Shown: in pieces, positions 11,251 to 49,270 of the stretch
Layout of the letters: every line of letters begins with the position of its first letter
Position numbering within the stretch: position 1 is the first letter of the stretch
Origin: a virus
Taxonomy: Duplodnaviria; Caudoviricetes
DNA: 64,000 nucleotides
Direction: 5' to 3' (one strand)
Virus record (IMG/VR): IMGVR_UViG_3300049472_000073
Coordinates: 24,155-88,154 of that record
Made by a program: the position numbers and the translations under genes
Notes under the pieces: generated by a model
Seen by the model: the letters and a program-made list of their open reading frames with translations, nothing else
What the model was told of the DNA's origin: nothing
Database searches by the model: none

Positions 11251-11251
11251 T

Positions 11252-13738
11252 ATGGCTGATAAATTAGACCTAGAGCCTTTAGATTTAGAACCTTTAGAGT
11301 CAAGTAATAAGCTCGATTTGGAGCCTCTTGACCTAGAGCCAGTAGAAGAGGAAAAATCCTTTCTACAATCTGCTAAAGAGACAGGTACTGGTTTATTACG
11401 TGGAGCAGAACAAGGTGCCACATTAGGTTTTGCTGATGAATTAGGTACAATGATCGAGAATTACCGACTCAAGAAAGAACTTGAGAGAATGGGTTTAGAT
11501 CAAGATACCCTTAATACTAAAGCTCAATCTGAACTTGCTAAACAAGAAAAAGCAAACTTAGAAGGTACTAGACAAGAGTATAGAGCTGCTCAAGAAGCTG
11601 CTCCTATAGCATATGGAACAGGACAATTAGGTGGTGCTGTAGCTACTGGTATGGCAACAGCTCCCTTAGCTGGTGCTGGTAGTCTAGCAAGACTATCTGC
11701 ATTAGGGGCTACTGAAGGTGCCGTTACTGGTTATGGAACTAGTGAAGCTGAAACTTTAGAAGGAGCATTACCTGAAATTGCTACTGGTGCTGCATTTGGA
11801 GCCTTAGCTCCTGGTGCTGCTAAAGCATTAGCTCCTGTAGGTAGAATGGCTTTGGCTCCTGTAAAGGCTGTAGGTAGAACTGCTAAAAAAGTATTATCCG
11901 ATTTAGGAGAAGCCGAAGTATTTAAAGACGTAAAAAGAGGTTTTGAATACGGAACTAAAAAAGGACAGACCTTGTTTAGTGAACAACCTGCTAGAGAAGC
12001 TGGAGAACAGCTAGAAAAGACTTTAGGAGACACTTTAGGAGTAGTATCTGGAGCTAAAAAAACCGCACTAGAAACTACTGAAAAAGCCCAACAAGAAATA
12101 CTTGAGCGTACTAAGGCTGCTGAAGCTGAAATGTTAGCCGCATCACAAAAAGCACAAGAAAAAGTGGCTAAAGACTTAGCTGCTGCTGAAGCTGCTGAAC
12201 AAGCAAATAAAAAACTAGTTCAAGAACAAAAAATTGCATTTGAAAAAGGAAAACAATCTACTGTAAGTTCATTAAATAAGAAAGTAGATCAGAGTGCTAG
12301 AACATTAGCAGATAAATATGCTAATTTATATAATAGTCTTGGTACATCTAGAAAAGCCGTAGTAGCTGGACTAGAACAACAAGGTGTCAAAGTTGATACT
12401 CTTCCGTTTGAAGAGCAATTAACTAAAATGTTCGGAAACTTAACTACTGATGAGAGAGGACTAACTACGTTCTCTAATATGCGTAATATCAACGCTATTG
12501 ACACTCAAAAAATAAGTAGTATCCTAGACGATGTTAGAAAATTCCAAGGTGAGATCCCTTATTCTAAAGTAGAAGAGCTTAAAGACCTATTACAAAAGTA
12601 CGCTTATGGTAGAGGTGGTTTAACTGACGAAAGTAAACGCTCTATGAAAGCTTTGTATGATTCTATGAACAAGTCTATAGATGCTAGCCTTAAAGCTCAA
12701 GGACTAGAAGAGTCTGCTAAGCGTTTAAATGAGATTAATAAAGGCTTTAGAACTCTTTATAAAGCTCAAGATATTGGACTAGAGAAACTAGCTCCAGATG
12801 AACTAATCTCTGGCACTGGATATCAAAAACTTGCTCGTCAAGTAGGTTCTGAAGACTATACTCCTCAATTTGGTGAACAAAAAGAGCGTATGCTTGCTAA
12901 TATTGAGGAATTACTTGCTTCGCCTGCTGTTTCAGAGGAACAAAAACAAGCCTTAAGACAAGCATTAGAAGAAGCTAAGTCTACATCTCAGAAATTAGTT
13001 GGGGCAGAAGCAGAAACCTTTACTCCAAATATACCAGAAGTACAAAAACCTGCTCCTTTAGATAAGAATATGTTCAAAGTAGATGAAGAAGCTATCAGAA
13101 AAGAAGTACTAGCTACTCCTGAAGTAGCTGCTGCTGATAAAGCTATGGCCCAAGTAAAAGACGTAGAGCAAGTATTCGGAGACGTACTTACAAGAGGTAC
13201 AAAAGAAGCTAGATTACCTTCTAAAGCCTTAACTACTGCTGAAGTAGCAGGTACAGACCAGTATGCTGCTAAGCTAAAAGAACTTGAGTCACTTAGAAAA
13301 GCTGTAACTGAATTGGACCCTGAAAAAGCTGCTCAAGTATTACCTGAACTCGATAAAGCTATTGAAGAGATAGGCTTCTTGACCAGAACTGGACGATCAG
13401 TACCTATCGGTGACTTAACTACTCAAGCTACTGGTGGTATTAGAGCTTTGGCCGTTAAAGGTGCAAGTGCTTTAGGAGCTACTAAAATGGCTATTAAAGA
13501 AGAAATAAAAAAAGCTACTCCAGATAGCTTAAAAAATGTAGCTAAGTTTATTAGATCAAGTACACAAAAAGCTGGTGAAGCTGGAGCAAAAACAGGACAA
13601 CAAACCAGAGAAGTATTTGCTCAGATGTTGGATAAAGCTGCTGATAACCCCGATAAGATAGCTAGAAGTGCAACCGTATTTATGTTATTACAGGACCCTA
13701 AGTATAGAGAGATAATGGACGAAGAAAATAAGGAATAA
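11252..13738 (+). CDS. large probable ejection protein (828 aa)
   Basis: GAEQGATLGFADEL motif and Gly/Ala-rich hydrophobic segments; N-terminal LDLEP repeats. Confidence 0.6.
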   Translation: MADKLDLEPLDLEPLESSNKLDLEPLDLEPVEEEKSFLQSAKETGTGLLRGAEQGATLGFADELGTMIENYRLKKELERMGLDQDTLNTKAQSELAKQEKANLEGTRQEYRAAQEAAPIAYGTGQLGGAVATGMATAPLAGAGSLARLSALGATEGAVTGYGTSEAETLEGALPEIATGAAFGALAPGAAKALAPVGRMALAPVKAVGRTAKKVLSDLGEAEVFKDVKRGFEYGTKKGQTLFSEQPAREAGEQLEKTLGDTLGVVSGAKKTALETTEKAQQEILERTKAAEAEMLAASQKAQEKVAKDLAAAEAAEQANKKLVQEQKIAFEKGKQSTVSSLNKKVDQSARTLADKYANLYNSLGTSRKAVVAGLEQQGVKVDTLPFEEQLTKMFGNLTTDERGLTTFSNMRNINAIDTQKISSILDDVRKFQGEIPYSKVEELKDLLQKYAYGRGGLTDESKRSMKALYDSMNKSIDASLKAQGLEESAKRLNEINKGFRTLYKAQDIGLEKLAPDELISGTGYQKLARQVGSEDYTPQFGEQKERMLANIEELLASPAVSEEQKQALRQALEEAKSTSQKLVGAEAETFTPNIPEVQKPAPLDKNMFKVDEEAIRKEVLATPEVAAADKAMAQVKDVEQVFGDVLTRGTKEARLPSKALTTAEVAGTDQYAAKLKELESLRKAVTELDPEKAAQVLPELDKAIEEIGFLTRTGRSVPIGDLTTQATGGIRALAVKGASALGATKMAIKEEIKKATPDSLKNVAKFIRSSTQKAGEAGAKTGQQTREVFAQMLDKAADNPDKIARSATVFMLLQDPKYREIMDEENKE

Positions 13739-16307: not shown

Positions 16308-16968
16308 AAAATCTCCCCTTCATAATATCTTCATCTGACTTGTCTTTTAAACGCATGATTAACTCATTGTCGTTAAAGATCTTGTCACCTTTCAAGAGAT
16401 TATTACAGTTAGATGATTCAGTCAAGGCTAAAACAATAGCCAGTGCATCGTATATATCAGTAGGAGTATCTCGTTCCTTTAAAGTAATGTTTGATAAAGT
16501 CCTTGTAGGAGCGTCTATACGCTTCACTACGCAGTCTTTAGTAGGAGTCTTGTAGTCTCGCTTACCCTTAACCATAACAGGCTTAATCTTGAGTATAGCT
16601 CTCCAGGAAGGAGGTGGGATCTCTTCAAAATGTATGTCCTTACCTACCTCATCTATACACATCTGTAGTATAGCATTGATAGTAGGGATAACGGCTGTAC
16701 CACCTGTTAGCATCTTAGGGTTCATAAAGAACTGTTCTGTATAAATACCGTCAATTTTAAACTCTTTAATCAAGAATAGAAAGCTAGTCTTCATATAATT
16801 TAGACGCTTGCCTAGTGACCACTTATCATGGGTCCACAGCATCCCTGACTTTAAAATAGTCATAGAAGACTGACTAGGGTCTATCTCACAAATGACAAAG
16901 GCTAAGTGGCTAGCCGAAGGATCGACTACCAATAGCCTCTGTTTACTTTCTATTGCTTTAATAGACAT
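16288..16968 (-). CDS. ruvC: RuvC-like Holliday junction resolvase
   Basis: LLVVDPSASHLAF (catalytic D), IYTEQ (E), IPPPSWR, DIYDALAI (D..D). Confidence 0.75.
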   Translation of the reverse strand: MSIKAIESKQRLLVVDPSASHLAFVICEIDPSQSSMTILKSGMLWTHDKWSLGKRLNYMKTSFLFLIKEFKIDGIYTEQFFMNPKMLTGGTAVIPTINAILQMCIDEVGKDIHFEEIPPPSWRAILKIKPVMVKGKRDYKTPTKDCVVKRIDAPTRTLSNITLKERDTPTDIYDALAIVLALTESSNCNNLLKGDKIFNDNELIMRLKDKSDEDIMKGRFFGNGKD

Positions 16969-17762
16969 TACTTCACGTTATGAAGAGTTTCTACCGTTTT
17001 ATACATCTTCTCTTCAGATGGCTCAAGTTTACGCTCTTCTTTTTTATAAGAAAGAGAAACTGCTTTATCAGCAAAACCAGTAGCCAAAGCTTCATCACTC
17101 ATTAACCACATCTCAATAGAGCTACGAGCTTTAAATTCTTCATAGTTCATTTTAGCACGTTTAGCAATTACTACGTTGTGCTTCTCTACATAACGCTGAA
17201 TGATAGTAAGACTACTTACTATCTTATCAAGTTCTCCACCTCCACCACCACCGATACTAGCAGGGTGACTCATAAGAATAGCATGGTCAGTAACCCAACG
17301 CTGTGTACCGTATTGATGAATAATAAATGCCATACTAGCGCAGAGATTTAAACAGATAGTGATTACAGGAGACTTTACAGACTTCATAGCAGTAATGAAC
17401 TCAGTGCCACCCATTACGCTACCACCTGGGCTATCAATAGCAACATAGATAGGAGCATCAGAATCTTCAGCCATAGCTTGTAATTGACTAATCTGAGCAG
17501 ACATATCAGCAATAGGAGTATTAACCAGGATAATTCTATCTGCATCTAAACGCTCATCATGAAGCTTAACTTCTGTGATCTTATAAGCCTTAAATACTTT
17601 TGTTTCTGGTTGAGCTGGTTGTTCTACTGTAGCATGTTTTACAGGATTAGAAACAACTGCCTTAGAGTTAAAAGCTTTAACAGTAATAACAGTTCCACCA
17701 ATAACAGCAGAGGTAATTGTTAGGTATTTAAGTGCGGTAAAGATTGCGAGTTTATTAAGCAT
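16968..17762 (-). CDS. ClpP/crotonase-fold serine protease with N-terminal membrane anchor
   Basis: IDSPGGSV, CASMA (nucleophile Ser), LMSHPA (His), EMWLMSDEALATGFAD. Confidence 0.8.
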   Translation of the reverse strand: MLNKLAIFTALKYLTITSAVIGGTVITVKAFNSKAVVSNPVKHATVEQPAQPETKVFKAYKITEVKLHDERLDADRIILVNTPIADMSAQISQLQAMAEDSDAPIYVAIDSPGGSVMGGTEFITAMKSVKSPVITICLNLCASMAFIIHQYGTQRWVTDHAILMSHPASIGGGGGGELDKIVSSLTIIQRYVEKHNVVIAKRAKMNYEEFKARSSIEMWLMSDEALATGFADKAVSLSYKKEERKLEPSEEKMYKTVETLHNVK

Positions 17763-20327: not shown

Positions 20328-21635
20328 TTAGAAATTATTCCACGGCTGAATGATCTTGTCAAGAGAAGCATTTTTATCTTCATCTACTCCGACCCTAATA
20401 AAACGTGTATCTCCTACTGGATACCCTTCTACTGATTCAAACAGTAACTGTCCACAAGGACTCTCTAAGATACCGATAGATACCGCAAACTCATCAGGGG
20501 GTATCAAAGCTCCGTTAGTAATCATATATACTCCATTAGATAGTAGGGTCTGTGAGAACACATGTACGTGTCCTACTACTGCTACGGAGTACTCTTCTGT
20601 ATCCTTTAGTCCAGCGTTAATCTTATTAAGCTGTGTCTCAAGGCTACCAATCTTAATATCTTTACCAGGGTATCCTGGGTTTAATACAGAGTCACCGTGG
20701 GTATATAGGATCTTCTTTCCAAATACTTCAAAGTGATCATAAGGCTTCTTTGTAATATGAATCTTTACGTTCTTTTGATTAGCTAATGCTTGTTTAAGAG
20801 CGTAGTAAATAATAGTCTCGTAGCTATCCCATTTCTGGTTAGTAGCGCGTCCATAATGACGTTCCTTACGTCTACCGTGGTTGCCCGATTCGCAGTATAC
20901 ATCTACTGAAGGAAACTCACTAGCGAGCCTCATAAGAGCTTGAGAGAGTAAGTGAATAGCACGACACACCTGCTCAGCCATTGGAGCACCATCTCTAGGG
21001 TCATGTAAAGTACCGTTAGTTAAATCTCCTATTAATAACACGTTCAAAGCTGTTTCAGCTCTATGTTCTTTTTTATATTCAATAGTCTCTTGTACTACTT
21101 TAGCTAACCGTCTAGATTCTTCTTTGACTCCATAGTTAGCTACACCAGTTTCTTCTGCCTTAACATCAGATCCAAAGTGAGTATCAGAGATTACTAGGTT
21201 AAAGAAGCGTTTGATAGCCTTTTTCTTTTTAGGATACTTAACTGGAGCCATTCGTCCTTTAAACACTGACTCAGAGAATTTCTCTACATAATCCATTACG
21301 TTCTCACGTACCAGGATATTATTATTTACTCCAGCTACTTTCTTAGCCTCTAGCCCCAAACGATACTCAGTAATGTCAGAGCTGTTAATACGAACTGGTA
21401 CAGCAAGGTTCTGGATATCTGGGTGGTTCTCTAAAGCAAATGCTTGGAATTTAGAGAAGGACTCAGCAATTCTATGAATTTTATCGGTACTAGCTAAAAA
21501 CTTAGCAGTTTCTCGTTTATTAGGTAGTTTTCCTAATTTTCTTGCTAAGTTAGCGTATTCTTTTGCAAGTTCAGTTAAAGTATCAGCTTTAGTTTTTTGT
21601 ATGTTCATACTATCTCCCATTATATCCGTATCCAA
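20328..21635 (-). CDS. calcineurin-like metallophosphoesterase with N-terminal extension
   Basis: ISDTHFG, IGDL, SGNHG, YTHGD, VGHVH motifs. Confidence 0.85.
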   Translation of the reverse strand: MDTDIMGDSMNIQKTKADTLTELAKEYANLARKLGKLPNKRETAKFLASTDKIHRIAESFSKFQAFALENHPDIQNLAVPVRINSSDITEYRLGLEAKKVAGVNNNILVRENVMDYVEKFSESVFKGRMAPVKYPKKKKAIKRFFNLVISDTHFGSDVKAEETGVANYGVKEESRRLAKVVQETIEYKKEHRAETALNVLLIGDLTNGTLHDPRDGAPMAEQVCRAIHLLSQALMRLASEFPSVDVYCESGNHGRRKERHYGRATNQKWDSYETIIYYALKQALANQKNVKIHITKKPYDHFEVFGKKILYTHGDSVLNPGYPGKDIKIGSLETQLNKINAGLKDTEEYSVAVVGHVHVFSQTLLSNGVYMITNGALIPPDEFAVSIGILESPCGQLLFESVEGYPVGDTRFIRVGVDEDKNASLDKIIQPWNNF

Positions 21636-22335
21636 GACTTTTTAAAAGCTTATTCGTATGAATAGCTGTTGATTGAGATGTTCCATTTAAACAGATGTCT
21701 TTGTAACACTGTCCTCTACCGTTTTCACTATACTTAGCTGGGCCACCTTTATTAGCGGCCTGTAAACCATTATCAGTAACTACTCTAAATCCTTCGTATT
21801 TCTGTAAACTTCTATAACAAGCAGGGTATGATTCGCATCGCTTAGACAAGTCCATAGACTCATTACCAGCAGCTACTACTATATAAGCACCTCTACCTAA
21901 AGCTAATCTAAGAGAAGTCTCTTCACTACTTAAAGGAGCTACCCCATTACCACTAAAGTTTAAAAGTAAGTAATCTGATTCTGACAGTCTACTAAGAATC
22001 TTCGGTACAACCTCTATACGTTCTTGTTCTGTATCATTTTTATTAAAATACTTAACTACTTTGATACAAACTCTTTTAGGATTAATGTCTTTTAGTATAA
22101 GACCTGCTACGTTAGTGCCATGTCCATGCCTATCTTGTAGTCCTTTACCTGTTAGATCAGAGTGTCCGTATTCACACATGAATGGCTTGAAATAAGGATC
22201 TCTTAGATCAATCCCTGTGTCAAGCACCAATACTGAAAATCTATGTTCTTTGGCTTGTGACGCGCAAGAACCTAGAAGTAACAAGGGTAGTAGCTTATTT
22301 AGAAGACTCATTTGTAACCTCTTCAGGACATGCAA
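21610..22335 (-). CDS. subtilisin-like (S8) serine protease, predicted lipoprotein
   Basis: Lipobox LLGSC; triad VLDTGID / HGHGTNVAG / NGTSQS; oxyanion AAGNE. Confidence 0.85.
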   Translation of the reverse strand: MHVLKRLQMSLLNKLLPLLLLGSCASQAKEHRFSVLVLDTGIDLRDPYFKPFMCEYGHSDLTGKGLQDRHGHGTNVAGLILKDINPKRVCIKVVKYFNKNDTEQERIEVVPKILSRLSESDYLLLNFSGNGVAPLSSEETSLRLALGRGAYIVVAAGNESMDLSKRCESYPACYRSLQKYEGFRVVTDNGLQAANKGGPAKYSENGRGQCYKDICLNGTSQSTAIHTNKLLKSLGYGYNGR

Positions 22336-23315: not shown

Positions 23316-23545
23316 TATTCCTCCAATAGGTTATTTAGATCTTGATCGAATTGCTTAGTAGCTCTGTAAGCCGAGTCTAGCTGATCATCATCACAACTAC
23401 TATGATTCCAGAACCATTCTTTTCCGTCATGTAGAGTTTTAACTATATAACAGTCATTATCAACACGTAGTATTTCATAGGTCAGAGAAAGACTATCATC
23501 ATTACCAGGATCTCTTACTACATCCCCTACTTTAAACTTAGGCAT
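23315..23545 (-). CDS. FDxxLEELL-tag family protein
   Basis: MPKFKVGDVV...LDSAYRATKQFDQDLNNLLEE*. Confidence 0.8.
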   Translation of the reverse strand: MPKFKVGDVVRDPGNDDSLSLTYEILRVDNDCYIVKTLHDGKEWFWNHSSCDDDQLDSAYRATKQFDQDLNNLLEE

Positions 23546-24491
23546 CTTCTAATTCTTCCCCGTCATCAGTACTGAATGTGCCCCAAGAGTCCTTATTAGC
23601 TTTCTTGTACGCTTCGATAGCTTCTGGAGTATTAGGTAAAATAGCATCAGATGTGATAACAAACTCACCTTCAGTAGAAGTGCTAGTTAAATGATTCTTA
23701 GCTACCTTAACTCTACACACAGTACCAAATACTACTTTACGTCCATCTACCTTAGAAGAAAGCTCTCCACCTTCTTTAATCTGTAAGCATAGAGATAAAG
23801 GGAACCAAATCTTCTCACCACCATTAGGAATCATTGTAGCCATTCCGCCTGGGAACTCTGGTGGCTTAATATAAGCTTGCGTAAGCATAACTAGACCTAC
23901 TGTATGGTCACAGTCTGTTTGTCTGGTAGAAGCGATTCTCTTCATAATAATAGGGTTATAATACCCAATTACCGCAGCATTCTTTTGAGGACCGTATTTC
24001 TTTTTAATCTTACCAGTCTTATCAATCTCTAAAGATTCAATAGAAGGAGTAGAGGCAACAGAGTCCCAAAAGATCATAATGTCCCTTGGAAGTCTACCTG
24101 TCTTAACATCCTCAATTTTCTGAGAAATATAGTTGTATACATCCTCTAAGTACTCCAGATCCTCTCTGATAATACATCTACTTTTACTAATATCTAGACC
24201 CATACGCTCGGCTCTAGACCAGTCCATTTTATTTTCTGTAATGATAAAGATAGGAGTAATCCCCTGTTTTTGAGCTTGTACAGCCGCGTGAATCATAATA
24301 CTGGTCTTACCAGAGTTACTTAATCCGTACATAGCTGTCACAGCCCCCATACGAAAACCAGGCATACCAATAGCTTCACTCAACTCCTTTTGTAAAACAA
24401 CATCCACATCAGGTTTATACACGATCTCTGTGTGATCTTCATTGCTTGAATAGTTCTCTAAATCAAATTCTTCTTTTTGTTTTTTACTCAT
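23538..24491 (-). CDS. recA: RecA/UvsX-like recombinase
   Basis: YGLSNSGKTS Walker A, IFWDSVA Walker B, PNGGEKIWF, VAKNH. Confidence 0.85.
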   Translation of the reverse strand: MSKKQKEEFDLENYSSNEDHTEIVYKPDVDVVLQKELSEAIGMPGFRMGAVTAMYGLSNSGKTSIMIHAAVQAQKQGITPIFIITENKMDWSRAERMGLDISKSRCIIREDLEYLEDVYNYISQKIEDVKTGRLPRDIMIFWDSVASTPSIESLEIDKTGKIKKKYGPQKNAAVIGYYNPIIMKRIASTRQTDCDHTVGLVMLTQAYIKPPEFPGGMATMIPNGGEKIWFPLSLCLQIKEGGELSSKVDGRKVVFGTVCRVKVAKNHLTSTSTEGEFVITSDAILPNTPEAIEAYKKANKDSWGTFSTDDGEELEDA

Positions 24492-25116
24492 TGTAGTACT
24501 CCCATTTAAAACCTTTATGATGTTTAAGTTTACCTTTACAGCATTGTATAATATGTCCTGAATTAAATCCAGGTATTTTACTTCCTGTAAAGATAGTTTC
24601 TTCTCCAGTTACTAAACACGTAGCCTTATATCTCTTACTCCACTCGGGCTTTCTTATCCCTTTATTAGGACTAGGACCCATTTTCATACCCTTATTCCAA
24701 GGAGTTCTTCCCATAGTGGACTTAGCTATGTTACTTCTGTAATATACTGAACTCCCATTATTAGCTAATTTTATGTTATAGCCATGCTTATCTGTAAGAG
24801 TCTCTAATGCTATAATGGCATCAATTTCAGCCTTGTCTAAATCAGCTTTATTTGTGTAACGTCCTAAAATACAATACTCAAAATTATCTACTCCATACTT
24901 TTTTATGGCCCTAGTTAATATACTATACCTAGAAAATCTAGGATTGCAATGTTGAACGAATCTATCTTTAAATTTTTGCGTGGTCTGACCTACATATCCC
25001 TTATCGTTTTTCTTATTTCTTATCAAGTAAACTACTCCATAAATAGGGAGTTTCTTTTCTTCCTCTAACTTATGCTTATAAGCTTGTAGATCAAAGGAGC
25101 TACTCATGTGATTCAA
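24484..25116 (-). CDS. GIY-YIG homing endonuclease with NUMOD-type DNA-binding repeats
   Basis: GVVYLIRNKKNDKGYVGQT; GYN; GRTPWNKG; C-terminal HIIQCCKGKLKHHKGFKW. Confidence 0.85.
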   Translation of the reverse strand: MNHMSSSFDLQAYKHKLEEEKKLPIYGVVYLIRNKKNDKGYVGQTTQKFKDRFVQHCNPRFSRYSILTRAIKKYGVDNFEYCILGRYTNKADLDKAEIDAIIALETLTDKHGYNIKLANNGSSVYYRSNIAKSTMGRTPWNKGMKMGPSPNKGIRKPEWSKRYKATCLVTGEETIFTGSKIPGFNSGHIIQCCKGKLKHHKGFKWEYYNE

Positions 25117-25569: not shown

Positions 25570-25771
25570 TCTTCCTTCTTTCTTCGCTGTCTAATTCCCA
25601 TTTTATCATTGTAATTGGGAAAATGAGTCCTAAACCTATACCAACAACCCAAGCAGCAATTTCTCTGTAGAACATAACACCTACAACAATAAGAGATAGC
25701 ACTATTAGAAAACTTACCCAAAGTACTGTCGCCCTAATTAAGTTTTTCATTTTACTTCCTCTAATTCCCAT
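25550..25771 (-). CDS. two-TM small membrane protein
   Basis: Two hydrophobic helices. Confidence 0.6.
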   Translation of the reverse strand: MGIRGSKMKNLIRATVLWVSFLIVLSLIVVGVMFYREIAAWVVGIGLGLIFPITMIKWELDSEERRKNETVSN

Positions 25772-26133
25772 TTAATTATGTTACTCATTGACATTTGTGA
25801 TCCATCCGCAGCAATAAAGTATCTCCAGTAAGCCATGTTTTCCCTAGCCCTGTTCTCGGATAACCCATCTACTCCAGAATAGGGGTATGTACTATGAGGT
25901 ATAGGAGCCGATCTGATAATATCATGTTCCCCAAACCAATTATAGTGAGCTACTATACGGTATATAGCTGCGTTCTTTTTAAGCTCCTCGTACTCAGCTT
26001 CTAGCTTCTTATTTTGCTTATTAGAACGCACACCGTTTATTTTATTGTCTATCATTTGTACTAAACCAAAAATAGCCATTAGCAATAGTAACAGTACTAA
26101 AGCTATACAACAAAAAATCAACATTTCTGTCAT
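25747..26133 (-). CDS. membrane-anchored hypothetical protein
   Basis: N-terminal TM helix and coiled coil. Confidence 0.6.
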   Translation of the reverse strand: MTEMLIFCCIALVLLLLLMAIFGLVQMIDNKINGVRSNKQNKKLEAEYEELKKNAAIYRIVAHYNWFGEHDIIRSAPIPHSTYPYSGVDGLSENRARENMAYWRYFIAADGSQMSMSNIIKWELEEVK

Positions 26134-27020
26134 AATCTCCCCAATCTATAAGTAAGTTCCTTGAACTCCTCATTAGAACAGCCAATATTTAAACGGATAA
26201 TATCATCTGACACACCCATTGCTGATCCCCTTAATCCAATTATATCACTACTCTCAAAGCTCTGTCCAGCATCATTATACAAAGCAAACATGCCCTCAGA
26301 ATTATTAGGCTTTATATTCAAGCTCTCAAGTTCTAACCATCTCTCATTTAAAATATTCTTAGCTTTTAGGTAGTATTGTCCATAATGACTAATACCGTTA
26401 TATGCCATTACCTGACCGTCTACACTGACTCCACTAGTAACAAGCTCTACGTAATCACGTAACTGTTTAGCCTTCTCAGGTTTACGCACTAATGCCCATC
26501 CTACACGACTAGCAGCCAGTCCTGTGAGTTTTGCCAGACTAAATAAGAATACCTCACCAGTGAGTGCTTTAAACTCACTATGACGGTAATACATAGGCCA
26601 GTGATAGCAAGCGTCTACGACATTAGTATAATAATTATAATAAGGCAATAGAAAATCTGGGTTGTTAGGGTAAACGGTAAAATTAAAAGATTCAGGATCA
26701 GTTCTCCCATAAAACGAAACTTTTCTAGCATCGGCTATCCCCTTAAATCTGCTCCAGTAAGGAGCGTACATCTCTAAGTATTTATGTGTTGGTATTAGTG
26801 CATCTAGTAACTGGGTAGCGCCATTAGCTACCACTACTTCATAAGAATCTACGTCAGCTATGTTCCCTACTTGTTTATGTAGCTTTCTAATGGCTCCTTC
26901 TAGGAAACCTTTAATCTTTGTGTCATAGCGGTACTTATCCACCATAGGTGGGTGAAAGTGAGTAGGAGTATAGATGTCTTGTAGGAACCCAGGATTACCT
27001 ACTGATAAGTCAAGTTTCAT
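26130..27020 (-). CDS. PLP-dependent fold-type I enzyme, alliinase/TAA1-like
   Basis: LHKQVGN, VVANGATQL, PNNPD, DACYHWP, FSLAKLTGLAASRVGWALV (Schiff-base Lys), IRLNI. Confidence 0.85.
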   Translation of the reverse strand: MKLDLSVGNPGFLQDIYTPTHFHPPMVDKYRYDTKIKGFLEGAIRKLHKQVGNIADVDSYEVVVANGATQLLDALIPTHKYLEMYAPYWSRFKGIADARKVSFYGRTDPESFNFTVYPNNPDFLLPYYNYYTNVVDACYHWPMYYRHSEFKALTGEVFLFSLAKLTGLAASRVGWALVRKPEKAKQLRDYVELVTSGVSVDGQVMAYNGISHYGQYYLKAKNILNERWLELESLNIKPNNSEGMFALYNDAGQSFESSDIIGLRGSAMGVSDDIIRLNIGCSNEEFKELTYRLGRL

Positions 27021-27504
27021 AAGTTTCCTTTATCTTACGTAACTCTTCTAGTTGACCTGAGAGTCTACTCAACCCATTAGTACTAATTATTTGCATTAGT
27101 TCTGGAAGCTCTTTAGGTGAATGGTCTACGGCCCATTTAATTCTATTTTTAGCCCATATTATGTTTTCTTGTAGCTGCCTATCATAAGCATTTTTAGGAG
27201 AGTCCACTATAGGCCAATGAACACAACCCATACCATAGTCATCTACAAAATATCTAAGTCCATTTATAGTAAGTATACTCTTTTTATCTATGTTTTTCTC
27301 TACTACCTCTCCAGATTTTAGTAGAAAAACTTTTTGAGTATCATTTTTGTCCTCTATTCCGTAGTCCCTGTAATATGTCAAAGAGTATACAGGATTAAAT
27401 CCCTCATAATACTTATCTTCTAGTTCTTTAGCATCTTGACCATAAATCCATTGAAGAGTTCCTGGATGCTGAATTACATACCCCTTAGCTTCTTTAGTGC
27501 TCAT
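27010..27504 (-). CDS. hypothetical protein
   Basis: ORF track. Confidence 0.6.
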   Translation of the reverse strand: MSTKEAKGYVIQHPGTLQWIYGQDAKELEDKYYEGFNPVYSLTYYRDYGIEDKNDTQKVFLLKSGEVVEKNIDKKSILTINGLRYFVDDYGMGCVHWPIVDSPKNAYDRQLQENIIWAKNRIKWAVDHSPKELPELMQIISTNGLSRLSGQLEELRKIKETYET

Positions 27505-27691: not shown

Positions 27692-28114
27692 TCATAGTCC
27701 AGTCTTTCTTAGCCTAGTTAGAAGAGCTTCGGCTTGTTCTACTGCAATATCCGCAATATCATGTCTACTAGGAGCATTACTTCCTATATATCGGCTATTT
27801 CCTTTAAATGCTAGTAGTCCTTGCATAGCTGCCATAGCAAATTGTTCACGTTTAGTCAGCGTATTAGTCTCTACTGGAACTACTCCTTTTACAGCCTGTA
27901 TAGGAGCTGTACGCTTAAGGTATTCTTCTATATCATCAATTATTTGCTTGATTGGTTTATTTCTAGTAATTCCCCATTTAATTCCTAAATCATCGTTATG
28001 ATAGGTAGTATTGTTATCGTTGTATACAAGCTCTCCACCTCTAAAATAGTATTGTAAAGCTAGTGCGCTATCAGTCTCTATCAAAAATTGTAAATATTCT
28101 TCATCAGTTGTCAT
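27692..28114 (-). CDS. hypothetical protein with the common phage motif LTKREQFAMAAMQGLL
   Basis: C-terminal motif often seen in small phage proteins. Confidence 0.65.
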   Translation of the reverse strand: MTTDEEYLQFLIETDSALALQYYFRGGELVYNDNNTTYHNDDLGIKWGITRNKPIKQIIDDIEEYLKRTAPIQAVKGVVPVETNTLTKREQFAMAAMQGLLAFKGNSRYIGSNAPSRHDIADIAVEQAEALLTRLRKTGL

Positions 28115-30273
28115 TTTGCATCACTCCATTTCGTTACCATTTTTGGTTCAGCAATCATAGGTACAGCTAGTTTCTGAGTTATCTCATTACTCTCCATACA
28201 CTCTTGTAGTATCTTAGCACACCTATCCGCCTGGTCAAGTGGAGAAATTACAGAGATCTGGTCATGAACCTGTGCCCATATCTTAGCGTCTAGTCCTTCT
28301 TCACGCACTCTACGGTGAAAGTCAATCATAGCTCTATTTACAATAGAAGCTGCAAGTGATTGAATTTGAAAGTTATATGCGTTTCTTTCTTCATTACCTA
28401 GAGTCTTGTATACTTCTCTACTATCTTTCATACCAGTGAGACGTTCAATCTTTCTCATGTTATTTTTTAAGTCCCAAGGCATGAACTCTTTAATGCCACT
28501 AGAATGTAACTTAAAGGTAATCTCAGCTCGTTTACGTCTACCTACTATGTTCTCTACATAACCTAGTCTCTTTAGTTTCTTCTTGGTATCCTTGTGGTAC
28601 TTAAGTAAGTTAGGATACGCTTTAAAGTACCTATCTTTTAATTCCTTGGCCTCTTCTTCTTCAATGCCCATCATCTTAGCAAGCTTAAACTCTGTCATGC
28701 CATAAGCAAACCCTAATGCCCACCCTTTTACAGATTGACGTAACTTAGGGGCCACATCCTTTAAGAAATTGGGATCACCTTCTTTAGCGGAGTACTCATT
28801 AGCTTGCATTACTGTAATATAGACCTGTGAATAGAAATCTAGGTCATCATGATAAATCTGTTGAATAGTAGGCTCATCAGCAATAATACTAAAGGAACGC
28901 GGCTCCAAGCTGCTATAGTCAGCATCAATAATAATATGGTCATTATCAGGTATAACACCTTTACGAATACGCATATCCCCAGCAGGTAGGTTTTGAAAGT
29001 TAGGATTAGCGGAGCTGTATCTACCAGAGGTAGTACCAGTTTGTTTAAAGTCAGGGTATAGTCTGCCATCTATTTGACGCTCTAGAAACGGCTCTACATA
29101 CGTAGACAGTAATTTGATCTCTTTCTTACGCTGTAGTAGTAATTTAATAATGGGACTGGACTCTTCATAGTTCTTACCGATCTCATCCAGTACTGCGGCT
29201 GTTACAGATCTCTTACCAGAGTCAGTAGTCTTCTCACAAGGGATGCCAAGCACATCATACATTAAGTACGCTAGGTCATCATTACTATCAATGTTGAAAA
29301 TCTTAGTAATGTCGTTCTTTTTCCTAAACCACTTACGAGCTATGTCTTTACTTCCAGGGCTATCTAACTCCAGAGACTCTCCAGCCTCTAGAAGTAGCTT
29401 GCCTAACTCACTACGCTCAGTAATCTTAGTTTTCTTCTTTATACGGTCTATCTCATAATTAACCAGGGCATCCCCCGATTCAATAGCGGAATAGATCTCG
29501 TCTTCTAATCTTTGTATAAGTTCTTTTACCTCTACTCTTAGTTTCTCAAAGTAAGGTACGTCAATAGCAATACCAGTAGTATTTAGCTCGTAGCTAACAG
29601 GTAGCAGGGCCATTACCTCATTATTCCATAGATTAAGTAGATTACCTTCTAGCTTTGGAAATAGTACCTCAAATAGGCCAAACGTGTATAAGGTATCGTA
29701 TACAGCATAAGTTCCTAAGATCTTATAATCACACTTGTAGAAGTCGAATTGTTTCTGTGATGTAGAGCCACCATTGGCCTTTACAGACTCTTTTACTTCA
29801 TCTTTAGGTGATAGAGCATCTGGGTCTAATAACTCACCAGCAAGCTCCTTAAGTCCCATAGGACCCTCTTCATTGTGTACTGTATGGGCTAGTAACATTG
29901 TGTCACAGAATACGTATTCACAGATATTAACCCCTAGCCAGTTATTAATGACTTTGATATCAAATACGGCATTGTGAGCAATTAGATTCTTTTTAGAGGT
30001 TAATAATTTATAACAGAAGTCTTTAACCTTTTGTACTGATTCTGGTGTCTTCCAAGGTGAGACTAGAGCATTGTCTTTCCAAATGCGTAAAGGGATATAA
30101 ATCCCTTCTTCTGTGTTAGGTGAAAATGAAATGCCAATAGGGTTAACAAAACGGCCTAAGCCATCTGTTTCAGTATCAAACGCAATATATTCAGCTTGTA
30201 AATAATAATCAAGTAACTCGTCTAGCCTATTGCTATTCGTTACTATCTCTATTGACTTTTCCTTGCTCCACAT
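28111..30273 (-). CDS. polA: family A DNA polymerase with 3'-5' exonuclease
   Basis: ExoI FDTET, ExoII AHNAVFD, ExoIII YAVYD; motif A DADYSSLEPR, motif B RQSVKGWALGFAYG, motif C VHDQ. Confidence 0.95.
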   Translation of the reverse strand: MWSKEKSIEIVTNSNRLDELLDYYLQAEYIAFDTETDGLGRFVNPIGISFSPNTEEGIYIPLRIWKDNALVSPWKTPESVQKVKDFCYKLLTSKKNLIAHNAVFDIKVINNWLGVNICEYVFCDTMLLAHTVHNEEGPMGLKELAGELLDPDALSPKDEVKESVKANGGSTSQKQFDFYKCDYKILGTYAVYDTLYTFGLFEVLFPKLEGNLLNLWNNEVMALLPVSYELNTTGIAIDVPYFEKLRVEVKELIQRLEDEIYSAIESGDALVNYEIDRIKKKTKITERSELGKLLLEAGESLELDSPGSKDIARKWFRKKNDITKIFNIDSNDDLAYLMYDVLGIPCEKTTDSGKRSVTAAVLDEIGKNYEESSPIIKLLLQRKKEIKLLSTYVEPFLERQIDGRLYPDFKQTGTTSGRYSSANPNFQNLPAGDMRIRKGVIPDNDHIIIDADYSSLEPRSFSIIADEPTIQQIYHDDLDFYSQVYITVMQANEYSAKEGDPNFLKDVAPKLRQSVKGWALGFAYGMTEFKLAKMMGIEEEEAKELKDRYFKAYPNLLKYHKDTKKKLKRLGYVENIVGRRKRAEITFKLHSSGIKEFMPWDLKNNMRKIERLTGMKDSREVYKTLGNEERNAYNFQIQSLAASIVNRAMIDFHRRVREEGLDAKIWAQVHDQISVISPLDQADRCAKILQECMESNEITQKLAVPMIAEPKMVTKWSDAK

Positions 30274-30595: not shown

Positions 30596-30939
30596 TAGTT
30601 CAGTACTCCTCTATCAATAGGACCTTCATCCCCAGTATCGTTCTCATCAGCCATACCAATGTCTTCTACGATGTTCATAGAGATAGCGTACATGCCAATA
30701 AGCTTTTTACCCTTCTTATCTCCTAGAATAACAAAATTGTCATCACTGTCAACAAAAAACCCTTGATGGGCCACAGGAGAAGGTACTGATGATACGTGAC
30801 CATCTTCTTCAACCTGCATAGTTCCCATCTTGGTAGAATAAATACGCACAAATTTACCCTTAAACACCTTATTCAACGCTGCACTCATATTAACCTCACC
30901 AATCGTCGTTATTTTTAGCTTTTTTATCTTTCTTAGCAT
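30595..30939 (-). CDS. hypothetical small beta-barrel protein
   Basis: ORF track; true start probably the internal MSAALN. Confidence 0.55.
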   Translation of the reverse strand: MLRKIKKLKITTIGEVNMSAALNKVFKGKFVRIYSTKMGTMQVEEDGHVSSVPSPVAHQGFFVDSDDNFVILGDKKGKKLIGMYAISMNIVEDIGMADENDTGDEGPIDRGVLN

Positions 30940-32818
30940 CCCTTAAGTCTTCTAATGCTTCTTGTTCGATATAAGATAGAGGCTTAACTTTACCAGTTAC
31001 ACCTTCCCAACCGAAGTCAAGAGAGAATAGTCCACCTAGGGTATTCTTTAAGCAGTTAATCGTAATAAACTTATCATTCTGTGGGGTATCTGGGCTAAAC
31101 CCTTCTCTGTATACACCAAAAATAGTTCTAAAGTTCTGTTCTAACACAGAAGCTCCCTTTACTTGTCTCATTGAGTACAAAGGAGTAGAGGCATCACCAG
31201 CACTCTTAGGAGGCTGTACAAGGACCACCACACACGCTTCTAGATCAGTAGATAAATCCTTTAGCTGAGTAGCTAAGAAGGCACCATTGGCCGTAGGATC
31301 ACTATAAGGGCCTACTAATAGCTCTAAGTAGTCAATCACTACTAGTTTGATTTTTTCACCTAGTTGTTCTTGTCTTTTTAGTACTTGTTGCTTAATGTCT
31401 TCTACTGTAGTACCTGATCTAAACCAGAAGTCTACATTCTTAAATTCTCCAGCTAATTTAGCATCCCATTCACGATAATGGTCCTTATCTTGCTTATAAG
31501 TCTCGATTACGTCTTCAAACTTGTGTCCACTGAGTCGGCTAATAAGACGAGCATATACTAATGGCCATCCCATGTCTAGTGAACAAAATACTGATCTAGT
31601 ACCAGCTAATGAAGTGTTATGTAGCATGTTAAACGCTAGGGCAGTCTTAGCAGATCCTGGTGCCCCTAAAATTCCAGTGAGCATAGAGGTAGTAAGCACG
31701 ATCTTTTCGTCTAATGCTTGTATACCTGTATATACCCTGTTCTTTTCAATATTCACAGCAAAGTCTTTAAACTTGCTGGATAGGTCTTCAATTTTAATTA
31801 AGTCAGTATTGTCTTTTTTCTTACACGCATCTTTACTAGGGCAGATCTCTTGTAAGAACTCATGGTCTTTACAAGCATACGTTTTACCCTGCCATGTCGG
31901 ACTGTATACAACTCTAATGATGTTGTTCCAGATCTCATCTTTATCAAACGGTTCATCACCTGTACGTCTAGCTTGTAACTCAGCCGCACCTTTTAGCATC
32001 CTATATGCTACTTCTTTTGGTAGTCCTTGAGCTGAAATAGAAGCACATAAAGACATAAGTGCGTTACTTCTGTTACCTGATTTAAAGTATCCATTTAGAA
32101 TAGCTTCTCTACAAGGTGGGAGCCACTTAACTTTAAGTACTAGATCTTTTACGTCATTACTAAGCTCTGCATTTTTATTTACTACAGGAGCTTCCTCAGA
32201 CTTAGGCTTAAGATCACTTGGTAACTCAACTGATAGAGTCTTCCACTCTACAGCGTTATCAAGATCCTGAGCAATAGTCTTAATAGTAGCTGAGTCAGTC
32301 TCAGCCAATGTCTCAATAGAGATAGGTAACTTAAACAGCCCACTACTAGGGTGTCTAGTATATGGTGCTCTGAATAGACGGTTCTCATTATAGATAACCG
32401 TATCCCAAGTATTACAGTCACCTGCTAATTGCTTAGCAATGCTTTTAATATCTTGGGAGGTATATGAGTTAGAGAGTCTAGTTTCAAGGCTAAATCCTTT
32501 GTTACCGCTAAAACATATATTAATCTGCTCATTGGTAAAACCGTATTGGATAAGTCTATTATATACCGTAAGGGCATCATCCTTAGCAAGATCAATATTT
32601 TCCTTACTATCGAAGTCAAATACGAGTTTATCTGTAACTAGCCCTGTAAAGCCAGCTACAGACTTCTTCTTTTGAAACTCACTAAAGTGTAGATCATTAT
32701 ACAAGAACAGAGATACATACCAGTCAGTATCAGTGCTGTTAATAACATTAGTCAGCTCTGCTTCTGGAACCAGAATACCTTTATCTTTAATACCCTTACA
32801 AATACGAATGTACTTCAT
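30896..32818 (-). CDS. primase-helicase (AEP-type primase plus DnaB-like SF4 helicase)
   Basis: VFDFD, FSGNKGF and RLFRAPYTRH (AEP); LPPC...GNRSNAL; GAPGSAKT Walker A, VIDYLEL Walker B. Confidence 0.85.
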   Translation of the reverse strand: MKYIRICKGIKDKGILVPEAELTNVINSTDTDWYVSLFLYNDLHFSEFQKKKSVAGFTGLVTDKLVFDFDSKENIDLAKDDALTVYNRLIQYGFTNEQINICFSGNKGFSLETRLSNSYTSQDIKSIAKQLAGDCNTWDTVIYNENRLFRAPYTRHPSSGLFKLPISIETLAETDSATIKTIAQDLDNAVEWKTLSVELPSDLKPKSEEAPVVNKNAELSNDVKDLVLKVKWLPPCREAILNGYFKSGNRSNALMSLCASISAQGLPKEVAYRMLKGAAELQARRTGDEPFDKDEIWNNIIRVVYSPTWQGKTYACKDHEFLQEICPSKDACKKKDNTDLIKIEDLSSKFKDFAVNIEKNRVYTGIQALDEKIVLTTSMLTGILGAPGSAKTALAFNMLHNTSLAGTRSVFCSLDMGWPLVYARLISRLSGHKFEDVIETYKQDKDHYREWDAKLAGEFKNVDFWFRSGTTVEDIKQQVLKRQEQLGEKIKLVVIDYLELLVGPYSDPTANGAFLATQLKDLSTDLEACVVVLVQPPKSAGDASTPLYSMRQVKGASVLEQNFRTIFGVYREGFSPDTPQNDKFITINCLKNTLGGLFSLDFGWEGVTGKVKPLSYIEQEALEDLRDAKKDKKAKNNDDW

Positions 32819-33330
32819 TACCCATCTCCTTCAATTATATTCAGCTTAGCAAACTCTCCGAACAATTCCAATGCTTTTTTATTATACGCTCTAGCAGCGT
32901 CTTCTTCTACTGAAAAACTACCTAAGCCATACTTAATACCACTATGCTTTATTAATCCTACCCACTTAGTATTAGTGGAGTTTCTATAGACCCCTTTATA
33001 TTTAGAAGTCTTTTTTCTTTTTTGTATGCTCTGATTTTGAGCATTTCCTTTTGCAGTACATAATCGTAAATTCTCTCTAGTGTTATCTAGAGTATTGCCA
33101 TTAATGTGATCTACAAACATTCCTTTAGGGGCATCCATAATAAATCTATGTAAAGCTGTGTTGTAATAACCTCCACCTGGTTTCTTTATAGTCATCATGA
33201 CATAAAAAGTCCCCATAGAATTTATGCTTACGCATAGTGCGTGTGGAAGCACTCTATCATAGTCTTCATCTGACACATAAGTATCAATGTACCCATGTGT
33301 CTTAGAAGTAATTGTAATTGGATTACTCAT
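32818..33330 (-). CDS. HNH-AP2 homing endonuclease
   Basis: LHRFIM...VDHINGNTLDNTRENLR; SKYKGV...LGSF..EEDAARAYN...FGEFA (AP2). Confidence 0.9.
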   Translation of the reverse strand: MSNPITITSKTHGYIDTYVSDEDYDRVLPHALCVSINSMGTFYVMMTIKKPGGGYYNTALHRFIMDAPKGMFVDHINGNTLDNTRENLRLCTAKGNAQNQSIQKRKKTSKYKGVYRNSTNTKWVGLIKHSGIKYGLGSFSVEEDAARAYNKKALELFGEFAKLNIIEGDG

Positions 33331-40331: not shown

Positions 40332-40955
40332 CTAAATAGTCCATTCCATAGCTTCAGCAATAGTAGGGAACTGTTCTATGAATATCTTTTTAGCGGCCAT
40401 AGCAATGTCCCTGTGTTCTTTTTGAGTAGATGGGTCAGTACGTACTTGAATATAATGTACCCAAGACCTTATAGTACCGTTCATATACAGTTTTGTCACT
40501 GTGTTTAGAGGTAGTAATGTCCTAGCTTGTTCTTTGGCTATGCCTTTAGACAGTGCCTCTTCATACAGTCCATAAGAACTATCCCATACCTGTTTCTGAG
40601 CGTCTACAAACCACTGTAGATCGTCTTCTGACATATCCTCAATACTATTCTGCTTATTCTTTAAGTCCTGCCTACGAGCCGTATAAGACTCATAGGAGGC
40701 TGCTTCAGCATATCTCTGACTGAACTCTTGGAAGCTAAAACTACGGTGCCTTAGTATCTGTGGGCTAATAGCTCTAGTGGTAGTAATCTCTAGGCACATG
40801 CTAGCCATCTCCAGAATGGAGTAGTGATTATGCTTAACGCAGTATCTAATTAACTTAGCGTACTCAGGGTTATCCTGATTAGGGCTAGACACCCTAGCAC
40901 AATAAGCAATATGCTTTTCTGCATCAGGTGTCACATGTACTAATTTTACTTCCAT
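40332..40955 (-). CDS. thyX: FAD-dependent thymidylate synthase
   Basis: HYSILE; [17 protein letters not shown] (ThyX motif); ARTLLP; TQKEHR. Confidence 0.95.
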
Positions 40956-40963
40956 TGTATCTC

Positions 40964-42817
40964 CTATGTTATTTCACAATTTCCAGAAACGCAAGCGAGT
41001 TGCTCAATACGACTTGTATTGTCCATTTCCTCTTTGACCATACGTAGATCAATCTCTTTTACTAAAGCTGACATATCCTCATAGGTTTCTTTAGAGCAAT
41101 CCTCGAAGGGAGCTTGTTGATAAGTATGACCGTCAAACGGTAACAAAGAAATACCTGAGTATGAGTCTCTACTGTTCCACATTTGTTCACGTAAACTATT
41201 CCACTCGTCTTCTTTAACTGAGATAGTAACAGATACGTTATGCTTATTCAAGCCATCTCTGTGAGTAGGCTCAATCCAATTCTTTCTGTACATTAAAGTA
41301 CGGTCTAAAAGACCTAGTGCTGTCTCTTGGTGACGAGTAATAGCTCCTTTAGGGCTTTCTTGGGGTATTGAAACTACTACTCCACTTGAACTAAATACAT
41401 CGTCCTCTACTAGATCTGGTATAACAGATTTTAAATATACAGCTAGAGCATCGTCTTTATTCATACGAACTCTACGGATATAATAATCAGCATGTCTAGC
41501 ATGAATACCGCTAGAAGATCCTAATACACAGCTAGCAGAGCCTTCTGGTTTTACAGTACCAATTCTAGCGGCTAAATTAATACCTAGCTTACTAGCATAC
41601 TTTTCATTTACCTCTAGTGCCAATGCAGCACCTTTTTGTAGTAACTCAGGAGTCACTACTCCAGCATTATCCGCAATACCAGTAAATGATACTCCAAGTA
41701 ACGCTTCTCTTTCTGTAGTCTGTTGCCAAACAGGACGTAGGTAATCAAAACTAGTATAACTAGCTTGAAGAGTACCAATAAGGGTAGCAGCGTAGACCCT
41801 GTTTAAAAAATCTTTCTCACTTCGTATTCCAGTCTGATTAATAGTAGTTAAGTTACAAAATTGATTAGGGCTTAAAGCTATCTCACAGCAAGGATTAGTC
41901 AATAAATTCAATGAGTTAGACCAGAAGAATCCTGGTTCACCACTATTAGAATCTTTGCACATCTTAAAGATATGATCGAACTCTTCTTTAGTTACTACAT
42001 CTCTTGGAAGTACAACTGAATTGTTAGCTCTGGCTCTCCAAGGAGAATGATTCCACCATTCACCATGTTTCGCTTTTAGCATTTCTTCATCATCTCTATC
42101 AAATAGAGAAATAAGCGCAGCTCTACGTATACCTCCAGCTAATACAGCATCACTAATGATGCATACGATATCATGGGCTTCAATAGGTCTAAGCTTTCTG
42201 CCCATTGCAGCTTTAAGCTTAGCTTCTACCATCTCTAGCATTTTACGCAATGGCTCAGGACCAGGAGCTTTAGCTCCAGTAGTCACTAAGTATGAACCTT
42301 TAGGTCTGATATTACCGAAGTCAAATTGTGGTCTAATGCGTCCTAGAAAGTATGACTCCATTAAAACGTCTAAGGCTTGTGCCCATCCTTGAATAGAGTC
42401 ATGAATTACAAAGTATCCTTCTTCTCTAGGCATTTTGATAGCAGGTAATTGTGATACGTGGTGCTTTTGTACTGAGAAGCCGTAGCCCACCCCAGACAAT
42501 AAAAGATATAAAGCTTCTCCAAATGATCTAATGTCATCAATAGGTGATGCAGAGCAATTAAATAACCTTGCGTTATTTTTGACAATAGCTTCTCCAGAGA
42601 ATTGCATAGAACGCATACTAGGCATTACTTCTAAAGAATGAATACGTTGATAAGATTTAATAATGTCCTTAGATAGCTTAGGAAAGCGGTCTAAGTGCAT
42701 AGTCATGTTACGGTTAATAGTCTCAGCTAGAGACTCTCTTCTACCTAAATGTGGTAGGAATTTTGCATAAGTTCTAAAGGCTACAATGTCACTAAGTAAT
42801 TTATTTGATCCGTTCAT
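40964..42817 (-). CDS. nrdJ: class II adenosylcobalamin-dependent ribonucleotide reductase (RTPR type)
   Basis: FNCS; GVGYGFSV; [10 protein letters not shown]; [10 protein letters not shown]; TNPCCEI (radical Cys); VKPEGSAS; C-terminal CVSGNC. Confidence 0.93.
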
Positions 42818-42839
42818 TTCAACTCCTGTATTGTAATTA

Positions 42840-49026: not shown

Positions 49027-49270
49027 CTAGTAACTCCTTCAATTCTCTTTCAAATCTAGAAGTAGGTTCTTCTATAATAACTACTTCTTTTAGTCTTTCG
49101 TCAAACTCACTTATTTTATAAGTATACGGTCTACTGTCGTGCTCATTACTTCCACTAAATGTAACTGATCCCTCTTTTATATGTCTAAACTTAAAGTAGT
49201 GCTCTTTATTATCAATACGAATATACTTTCTTCCTTTCACTAACTCTTTATGTGAATTTATTCTAGCCAT
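49019..49270 (-). CDS. FDxxLEELL-tag family protein (variant)
   Basis: ...TSRFERELKELLDV*. Confidence 0.7.
   Translation of the reverse strand: MARINSHKELVKGRKYIRIDNKEHYFKFRHIKEGSVTFSGSNEHDSRPYTYKISEFDERLKEVVIIEEPTSRFERELKELLDV

Follow-up and report, generated by a model that had tools for sequence, protein, structure and literature searches.

The 64,000-nucleotide window analyzed here, bases 24155-88154 of the 88,154-bp IMG/VR virus record IMGVR_UViG_3300049472_000073 (CheckV completeness 100%), contains a gene whose product resembles a plant enzyme and raises the question of whether a phage carries a genuine member of the TAA1/alliinase family of pyridoxal 5'-phosphate (PLP) enzymes, and what such an enzyme would do in the infected cell. 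The 296-amino acid protein is a true member of that family, defined by the Pfam domain Alliinase_C (PF04864), and not an enzyme of the HisC, CobD, or aspartate aminotransferase type, with profile, fold, signature residues, and tree forming the basis of the assignment. With high confidence it is placed in a clade of compact, phage-borne proteins that is sister to the eukaryotic Alliinase_C proteins. The full reading of it as a stand-alone aminotransferase-type auxiliary enzyme of that clade is somewhat favored. The gene and the two codons on which much of the argument turns are as follows.

26130..27020, minus strand: gene of the 296-amino acid compact Alliinase_C-family PLP enzyme (viral-type clade), an open reading frame (ORF) with an ATG start
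26529..26531, minus strand: codon of Lys164, the predicted Schiff-base lysine (motif S-L-A-K-L-T-G), aligned with FSKITG of TAA1 and MSKFTG of alliinase
26748..26750, minus strand: codon of Arg91, a cationic residue specific to the viral clade in the family rows, of putative function, two positions after the PLP-stacking W89

A sequence-only reading had assigned the ORF to the TAA1/alliinase family, rather than to generic class I aminotransferases, from the motifs AIRKLHKQVGN, VVANGATQL, PNNPD, DACYHWP, and FSLAKLTGLAASRVGWALVRKPEKAKQLRDYVELVTSGVSVDGQ. All of these are present in the translation, and the TAA1 motifs quoted alongside them are correct, being in register with the phage protein in a HMMER alignment to the TAA1 structure (PDB code 3bwn). 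The profile comparison agrees with that assignment, with PF04864 giving 85.2 bits (E 5.5e-24, cut-off 22) and Aminotran_1_2 (PF00155) giving 22 bits. NCBIfam offers a single family, hisC (TIGR01141), at 22.3 bits and far under its cut-off of 276.6, and searches of PHROGs and PADLOC with the 296-amino acid protein return no match. In the PDB, only TAA1 (E 2.6e-14) and the alliinase of garlic (E 2e-12) are real sequence matches as calculated using HMMER.

The predicted fold leads to the same family. An AlphaFold2 model built from a 30-row family alignment has a mean predicted local distance difference test score (pLDDT) of 87.8 and a predicted template modeling score (pTM) of 0.87. Searched against the PDB using Foldseek, the model finds TAA1 and alliinase structures at ranks 1-11, with TAA1 first (template modeling score 0.87, E 3e-21) and alliinase at E 7.5e-20; the generic aminotransferases come next with E-values no better than 6e-14, a step of ~10^6. 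Five signatures, H48, N53, W141-P142, F160, and R227-W228, are common to the viral-type and eukaryotic rows and are missing from the outgroup, which in this comparison is small (four generic aminotransferase rows).

The ORF encodes what is predicted to be an intact, homodimeric, PLP-dependent enzyme of fold-type I, in which the PLP site is intact by alignment and the fold and dimer are modeled. Residues Y30, N120, D136, Y139, K164, R172, and R276 are invariant across the family alignments, and position 89 is always aromatic. K164 is invariant in family sets of 30, 93, and 28 rows and, together with N120, D136, Y139, and R172, is in register with the TAA1 and alliinase motifs. For a homodimer carrying two PLP molecules the prediction scores 0.83 (median over three runs) compared with 0.00 for the best control; in calibration, 20 of 30 proteins solved as pairs reached the mark, as did one of 23 solved as single chains. 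The dimer contacts agree between runs by at least 79% with pLDDT of at least 83, and the predicted interface is canonical, formed by residues 30-32, 66-70, 91, 167-173, and 193-205. Prior exposure of the model to the solved dimers of TAA1 and alliinase may account for this result.

The position of the protein within the family was addressed with a set of 125 rows comprising 93 viral-type sequences, 28 cellular sequences, and the four generic aminotransferases as outgroup. The cellular rows cover land-plant TAA-type and TAR3/4-type proteins, chlorophytes, Emiliania, Euglena, Parmales, MMETSP and other metagenomic long forms, and one protein from a Bacillota metagenome-assembled genome (MAG). 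The trees are quick searches carrying Shimodaira-Hasegawa-like approximate likelihood ratio (SH-aLRT) support in place of bootstrap. The 125-row tree separates ingroup from outgroup at 99 SH-aLRT and gathers all cellular rows in one clade at 100; in a 62-row subset with 40 viral-type rows the cellular clade has a support of 98, and the ingroup/outgroup split stands at 98-99 across both trees. The phylogeny thus keeps the ingroup apart from the four generic aminotransferases, and no placement of the phage protein with HisC, CobD, or aspartate aminotransferases is seen. The plant rows form their own clade within the cellular clade (98-100 support for the latter), and the window protein lies outside the whole of the cellular clade.

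When the 125-row quick tree is rooted on the outgroup, the cellular clade falls inside a viral-type grade with the window protein in a basal subgroup. An approximately unbiased (AU) test on the 62-row subset gives the tree in which the viral-type rows are constrained as one clade +14.5 log-likelihood units (lnL) over the free tree (p-AU 0.76). The nesting of eukaryotes within phage diversity was rejected, as this test gave it no support, and two sister clades, one viral-type and one eukaryotic, are the defensible reading because the nesting is not supported. The character states agree with shared ancestry and divergence of the viral-type and cellular members, as far as the aligned residues indicate, and outgroup-like states are retained in the viral-type clade at G243-M244, N278, and G280. 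The origin of TAA is disputed between horizontal transfer and an origin within the algae (PMC5611494, PMC4754409, PMC10015382). The sequence-only reading had proposed that a viral member could inform this origin; the protein is indeed relevant as part of a sister clade, but with the loss of the apparent nesting the contribution is reduced to that sister relationship. A bolder proposal is that the eukaryotic TAA/alliinase family and the phage clade share an exclusive common ancestor without cellular prokaryotic intermediates, the plant auxin aminotransferase lineage having entered early photosynthetic eukaryotes from a phage, or the reverse. This is considered unlikely; if true, a phage-to-plant transfer would parallel the phage-derived organellar RNA polymerase and helicase, and the phage clade would be the missing outgroup in the dispute.

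One member of the cellular clade carries a prokaryotic label. P0137 (NCBI MEN9406714.1, 404 amino acids, labeled as from a Bacillota MAG) is the sole prokaryote-labeled protein in an otherwise eukaryotic Alliinase_C clade, scores 169 bits against PF04864, and groups with a metagenomic cluster of 444-465 amino acids. It could represent contamination, horizontal transfer, or a true bacterial lineage.

The viral-type clade is populous. HMMER, run exhaustively over 1.84 billion cluster representatives (50% identity clusters), finds 613 clusters at E ≤1e-3, of which 274 are at ≤1e-10, and nearly all of the best 150 clusters have lengths of 286-375 amino acids. Members are found on 14 IMG/VR contigs representing at least five unrelated phage backgrounds, where their neighbors include terminase, an intein-bearing portal, DnaB, a GroEL-like chaperonin, an SbcC-like ATPase, ERF, RNase T, an NT5C nucleotidase, a C5 methylase, and TnpB. 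Bulk metagenome contigs, taken with no virus pre-filter, add 32 further loci; the flanks of the 13 longest (56 ORFs) contain the phage families ribonucleotide reductase (RNR, the commonest), SbcC, RuvC, exonucleases, endonuclease VII, tail fiber, terminase, helicase, and ERF. Every visible genomic context of the clade, in 15 IMG/VR records and the 13 long bulk contigs, is phage. An all-against-all BLASTP comparison of the ORFs of 15 viral loci detects no conserved partner gene.

Outside these environmental sequences the clade is not seen. A tblastn search with three divergent members finds no match in 50,697 GenBank phage records, the window protein has no match in 72,556 plasmids, and no viral structure comparable to it is present in BFVD. 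Scanned by motif, 185,579 prokaryote species genomes yield just two weak loci, a pattern-dependent result that is no proof of absence, and one of these loci (L016) was rejected as a clade member, being a generic PF00155 aminotransferase. In these searches the viral-type clade is missing from cultured phages and, within the reach of the motif scan, from the chromosomes of prokaryotes. Selection on the gene is evident in viral pairs, in which pN (nonsynonymous differences per site) is far under pS (synonymous), for example 0.13 compared with 0.92, and the substitution ratio dN/dS is 0.14-0.31 where estimable. With a median identity of 33% in the clade the catalytic residues are nevertheless invariant, and these two observations together indicate purifying selection across the clade.

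Several arrangements at other loci are recorded as observations in their own right. In a 98-kb viral contig (locus L001) the alliinase-like gene has a TnpB/Cas12f-like gene (11162-12247, plus strand; TNB domain, 59 bits) as its direct downstream neighbor, and an RNase T-like exonuclease and an NT5C 5'-nucleotidase lie upstream. In another carrier phage (locus L003, 11225-14353, plus strand) the portal gene is split by an intein with a Hint domain and a LAGLIDADG homing endonuclease. One sub-lineage shows a recurring order of a GroEL-like chaperonin (~595 amino acids), one or two small ORFs, the alliinase-like gene, and an SbcC-like ATPase (~565-580 amino acids), as listed here.

L006, 7694-12683: chaperonin, alliinase-like gene, SbcC-like ATPase
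L011, 7675-12690: the same order
L033, 3432-8479: the same order, by ORF sizes alone

In the window the enzyme gene is situated within a long minus-strand block that forms the replication module, between the DNA polymerase and a recombinase. The principal genes of this strand and the immediate surroundings of the enzyme gene are the following.

23538-24491, minus-strand block: UvsX-like recombinase
25747..26133, minus strand: downstream 128-amino acid ORF with a hydrophobic N terminus, overlapping the enzyme stop by 4 nt (ORF list)
27010..27504, minus strand: upstream 164-amino acid ORF, overlapping the enzyme start by 11 nt (translational coupling; ORF list)
27026..27030, minus strand: Shine-Dalgarno-like AAGGA, 6-10 nt 5' of the enzyme ATG (direct sequence reading)
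28111-30273, minus-strand block: DNA polymerase A (PolA)
30896-32818, minus-strand block: primase-helicase
40332-43352, minus strand: ThyX, a 617-amino acid RNR (phrog_367), and a PduO-type cobalamin adenosyltransferase (PF01923), side by side
54915-55358, minus strand: T3-type S-adenosylmethionine (SAM) lyase (PF23780, 70 bits)

The phage, which is uncultured, also encodes ERF, exonucleases, a deoxynucleoside monophosphate kinase, a dCTP deaminase, a GIY-YIG homing endonuclease, and virion proteins. The complete record with its replication and virion genes confirms that the enzyme is phage-encoded, as the sequence-only reading held. The GC content of the enzyme gene (0.39, with 0.32 at third codon positions) is similar to that of the neighboring phage genes. 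Neither overlapping ORF offers a functional lead: the upstream ORF has no match in Pfam, PHROGs, or PADLOC, no Atlas lead, and is not kept beside homologues in an ORF comparison across the viral loci, and the downstream ORF likewise has no match in these family libraries and no Atlas lead. The cluster of ThyX, RNR, and adenosyltransferase suggests that the phage supplies adenosylcobalamin to a putative B12-dependent RNR. T3-type SAM lyase has a known anti-restriction function. By PolA the nearest cultured phage is Flavobacterium phage immuto at 30% identity, an IMG/VR query with the DNA polymerase of this phage finds no close relative of it, and no tRNA genes are present in the window.

Given the absence of recurrent or obligatory partners, and of YUCCA-type, thiamine pyrophosphate (TPP)-decarboxylase-type, or ThyA-type genes, the protein is read as a stand-alone enzyme acting on a free amino acid. 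Its production would coincide with expression of the replication and nucleotide-metabolism genes, and in the infected cell it would need no partner. Lys164 would hold PLP as an internal aldimine, the amino group of the substrate would displace Lys164, and the Cα would then be deprotonated. The likeliest outcome would be transamination to a 2-oxo acid, with β-elimination less likely, and host amino acid nitrogen or carbon would in this way be redirected during phage DNA synthesis.

The identity of the amino acid may be constrained by position 91, which is arginine in 88% and lysine in 7% of the 93 viral-type rows (95% in total), with valine, methionine, serine, or other residues in the cellular clade and threonine in Arabidopsis TAA1 (PDB 3bwn alignment). 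The equivalent residue in aspartate aminotransferase structures presumably points to the substrate side-chain pocket, and because of this placement Arg91 may bind an anionic group, such as the distal carboxylate of Asp, Glu, or 2-oxoglutarate, a phosphate, or a sulfonate. Since Arg or Lys at position 91, near the residue that stacks on the cofactor, is close to invariant in this clade and particular to it, the substrate probably differs from those of TAA1 and alliinase.

A number of points weigh against the reading as a stand-alone aminotransferase. The local alignment with PF04864 covers residues 39-207 only, the C-terminal part being placed via the fold and family alignments. The Alliinase_C family holds both aminotransferases and C-S lyases, we know of no motif that separates the two, and the sequence would accommodate either chemistry and singles out no substrate. 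The role of Arg91 is ambiguous, with its proposed function resting on its position: Arg91 is nearly always paired with Glu or Asp at position 192 (E192 in 86% of the viral-type clade), both residues are at or beside the predicted interface, and Arg91 could alternatively pair with E192 of the partner subunit across the dimer. Covariation of R91 and E192, which bears on the choice between a salt bridge and substrate binding, involves two positions that are both nearly fixed. The link with nucleotide metabolism is positional only. RNR is found in 4 of 10 other carrier records, and an obligatory RNR link was rejected on this count although RNR is the commonest neighbor. The cobalamin adenosyltransferase occurs in one of 10 other carrier records and the SAM lyase in one of five other carriers, and links of the enzyme with cobalamin/CobD or with the SAM lyase were rejected on these counts. 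A defense or anti-defense role was likewise rejected, there being no PADLOC match.

The alternative that survives best, plausible though clearly second in probability, is a C-S (β-elimination) lyase like alliinase, which would cleave cystine, a cysteine substituted at sulfur, or an amino acid bearing a sulfoxide or sulfonate group. Pyruvate, ammonia, and a reactive sulfur species would be released, and the benefit would lie in energy and nitrogen, in sulfur mobilization, or in the poisoning of competitors. Alliinase is the second-best match by both structure and sequence, the wider class I family includes many C-S lyases, and the plant Trp aminotransferases are seen as descending from ancestors that resembled alliinase (Koper et al. 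2024, PMC11214133). However, the phage protein is without the EGF (epidermal growth factor)-like domain of alliinase, it lies outside the cellular clade, no sulfur-metabolism gene is found near any homologue, and no sequence feature separates lyase from transaminase.

A Trp (aromatic) aminotransferase like TAA1, producing indole-3-pyruvate so that the phage drives auxin production by the host, is improbable. Although TAA1 is the top match by sequence and fold, the window protein is outside the plant TAA clade and all cellular members, and the Trp aminotransferases are described as a land-plant-specific specialization (PMC11214133). Position 91 is Arg compared with the V, M, or S of the plant rows and the T of Arabidopsis TAA1. 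The complete phage genome contains no flavin-containing monooxygenase (FMO)/YUCCA-type, Pyr_redox_3, or TPP-enzyme (indolepyruvate-decarboxylase-type) gene. The sequence-only reading had looked to the Trp transamination and cysteine-sulfoxide lysis of the plant enzymes as candidate activities; neither is supported for the phage protein, which lies outside the whole cellular clade, has the Arg/Lys91 of the viral clade, and comes from a genome with no YUCCA- or indolepyruvate-decarboxylase-type gene.

About equally improbable is an enzyme acting on a phosphorylated or anionic small molecule, like HisC (on histidinol-phosphate) or CobD (a threonine-phosphate decarboxylase), the phosphate being bound by Arg91, and perhaps with a role in cobalamin supply for a B12-type RNR. 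The clade-specific Arg91, the cobalamin adenosyltransferase adjoining RNR in this phage, RNR as the most recurrent neighbor of the homologues, and the weak NCBIfam best match to hisC are in its favor, but that match is at 22 bits against a cut-off of 277, the adenosyltransferase and RNR are in only 1/10 and 4/10 of the other carriers, and profile, fold, and tree all point to Alliinase_C.

The least credible proposal, tailoring of an amino acid-decorated base in the phage DNA as by the PLP decarboxylases of phages M6 and ViI, draws on the location of the gene between DNA polymerase and recombinase in the replication module and on the presence of PLP enzymes in such hypermodification pathways (PMC8989533), but was rejected because the known enzymes have another PLP fold (fold-type II) and always occur with a 5-hydroxymethyldeoxyuridine (5-hmdU) DNA kinase, an aGPT-Pplase, and a dUMP hydroxymethylase (PMC8989533), whereas the complete phage genome has ThyX and dCTP deaminase and no ThyA-type hydroxymethylase gene, and no such partner recurs beside the homologues (the kinase and aGPT-Pplase not having been searched for specifically).

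Other features of the window were noted in passing. A subtilase-like protein with a Peptidase_S8 domain (241 amino acids; 21610-22335, minus strand) and a ClpP-like protease (16968-17762, minus strand) are both encoded in the early/replication strand block, away from the structural module. At least four homing-endonuclease-type genes (one GIY-YIG and three HNH) are placed among the replication genes, at 24484-25116, 32818-33330, and 49263-50486 (all minus strand) and at 56109-57083 (plus strand).

PF04864 has been described as largely confined to plants and to protists that carry secondary plastids (Koper et al. 2024, PMC11214133). A 2013 study listed the Alliinase_C domain among marine-metagenome Pfam clusters, with the carrier organisms not stated (PMC3597751), and a full-text literature search found no paper describing phage Alliinase_C members. 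The main value of the phage enzyme and its relatives is as the nearest non-eukaryotic relative of TAA/alliinase and as a widespread auxiliary enzyme. A highly diverse phage-borne sister clade would give the debate on TAA origin its nearest non-eukaryotic relatives and a better outgroup than the generic aminotransferases. For phage biology the gain is an auxiliary PLP enzyme that is widespread and strongly conserved. Most auxiliary metabolic genes have a counterpart derived from the host, whereas none is evident for this enzyme. At 296 amino acids the protein is among the smallest fold-type I aminotransferase-like proteins and would be a useful minimal scaffold.

What is newly characterized here is a phage-borne variant of a known enzyme family, and its features are best seen against the systems to which it is related. 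The hypermodification PLP decarboxylases, M6 gp52 and ViI gp226, are of fold-type II, whereas the window protein is of fold-type I. With the generic class I/II aminotransferases (PF00155, including aspartate aminotransferase Ib, HisC, aromatic, BacF, and kynurenine aminotransferases) it shares fold-type I and the universal residues Y30, N120, D136, Y139, K164, R172, and R276, and the G-M-F of these enzymes at 243-245 is also present in the viral clade. The generic enzymes are without H48, N53, W141-P142, F160, and R227-W228 and lie across the branch supported at 98-99.

The PLP-site residues are in register with those of garlic and onion alliinase (alliin lyase, EC 4.4.1.4; PDB codes 1lk9 and 2hor) and of plant TAR3/TAR4. 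The phage protein differs from these in belonging to another clade and in having neither a signal/vacuolar targeting extension nor the EGF-like alliinase domain (no PF04863 match in the 296 residues). Compared with the plant members in general it starts ~80-107 residues later, so that the N-terminal extension including the EGF-like domain is absent, and about eight loops are shortened, mainly in the C-terminal small domain.

The closest relationship is with the L-tryptophan:pyruvate aminotransferases TAA1, TAR1, and TAR2 of Arabidopsis (PDB codes 3bwn and 3bwo), with which the protein shares the S-K-x-T-G lysine motif, PNNPD, D-x-x-Y-x-W-P, SR-x-GWALV, and LH-x-x-x-GN, a fold-type I dimer (predicted for the phage protein), and the lack of an EGF domain. 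The phage protein is 296 residues long compared with 391 for TAA1, lacking the N-terminal extension and having the ~8 loops trimmed, it has no YUCCA partner, and Arg91 replaces a small or hydrophobic residue. It also carries G243-M244, N278, and G280 at positions where the plant proteins have P-A, S, and L/I.

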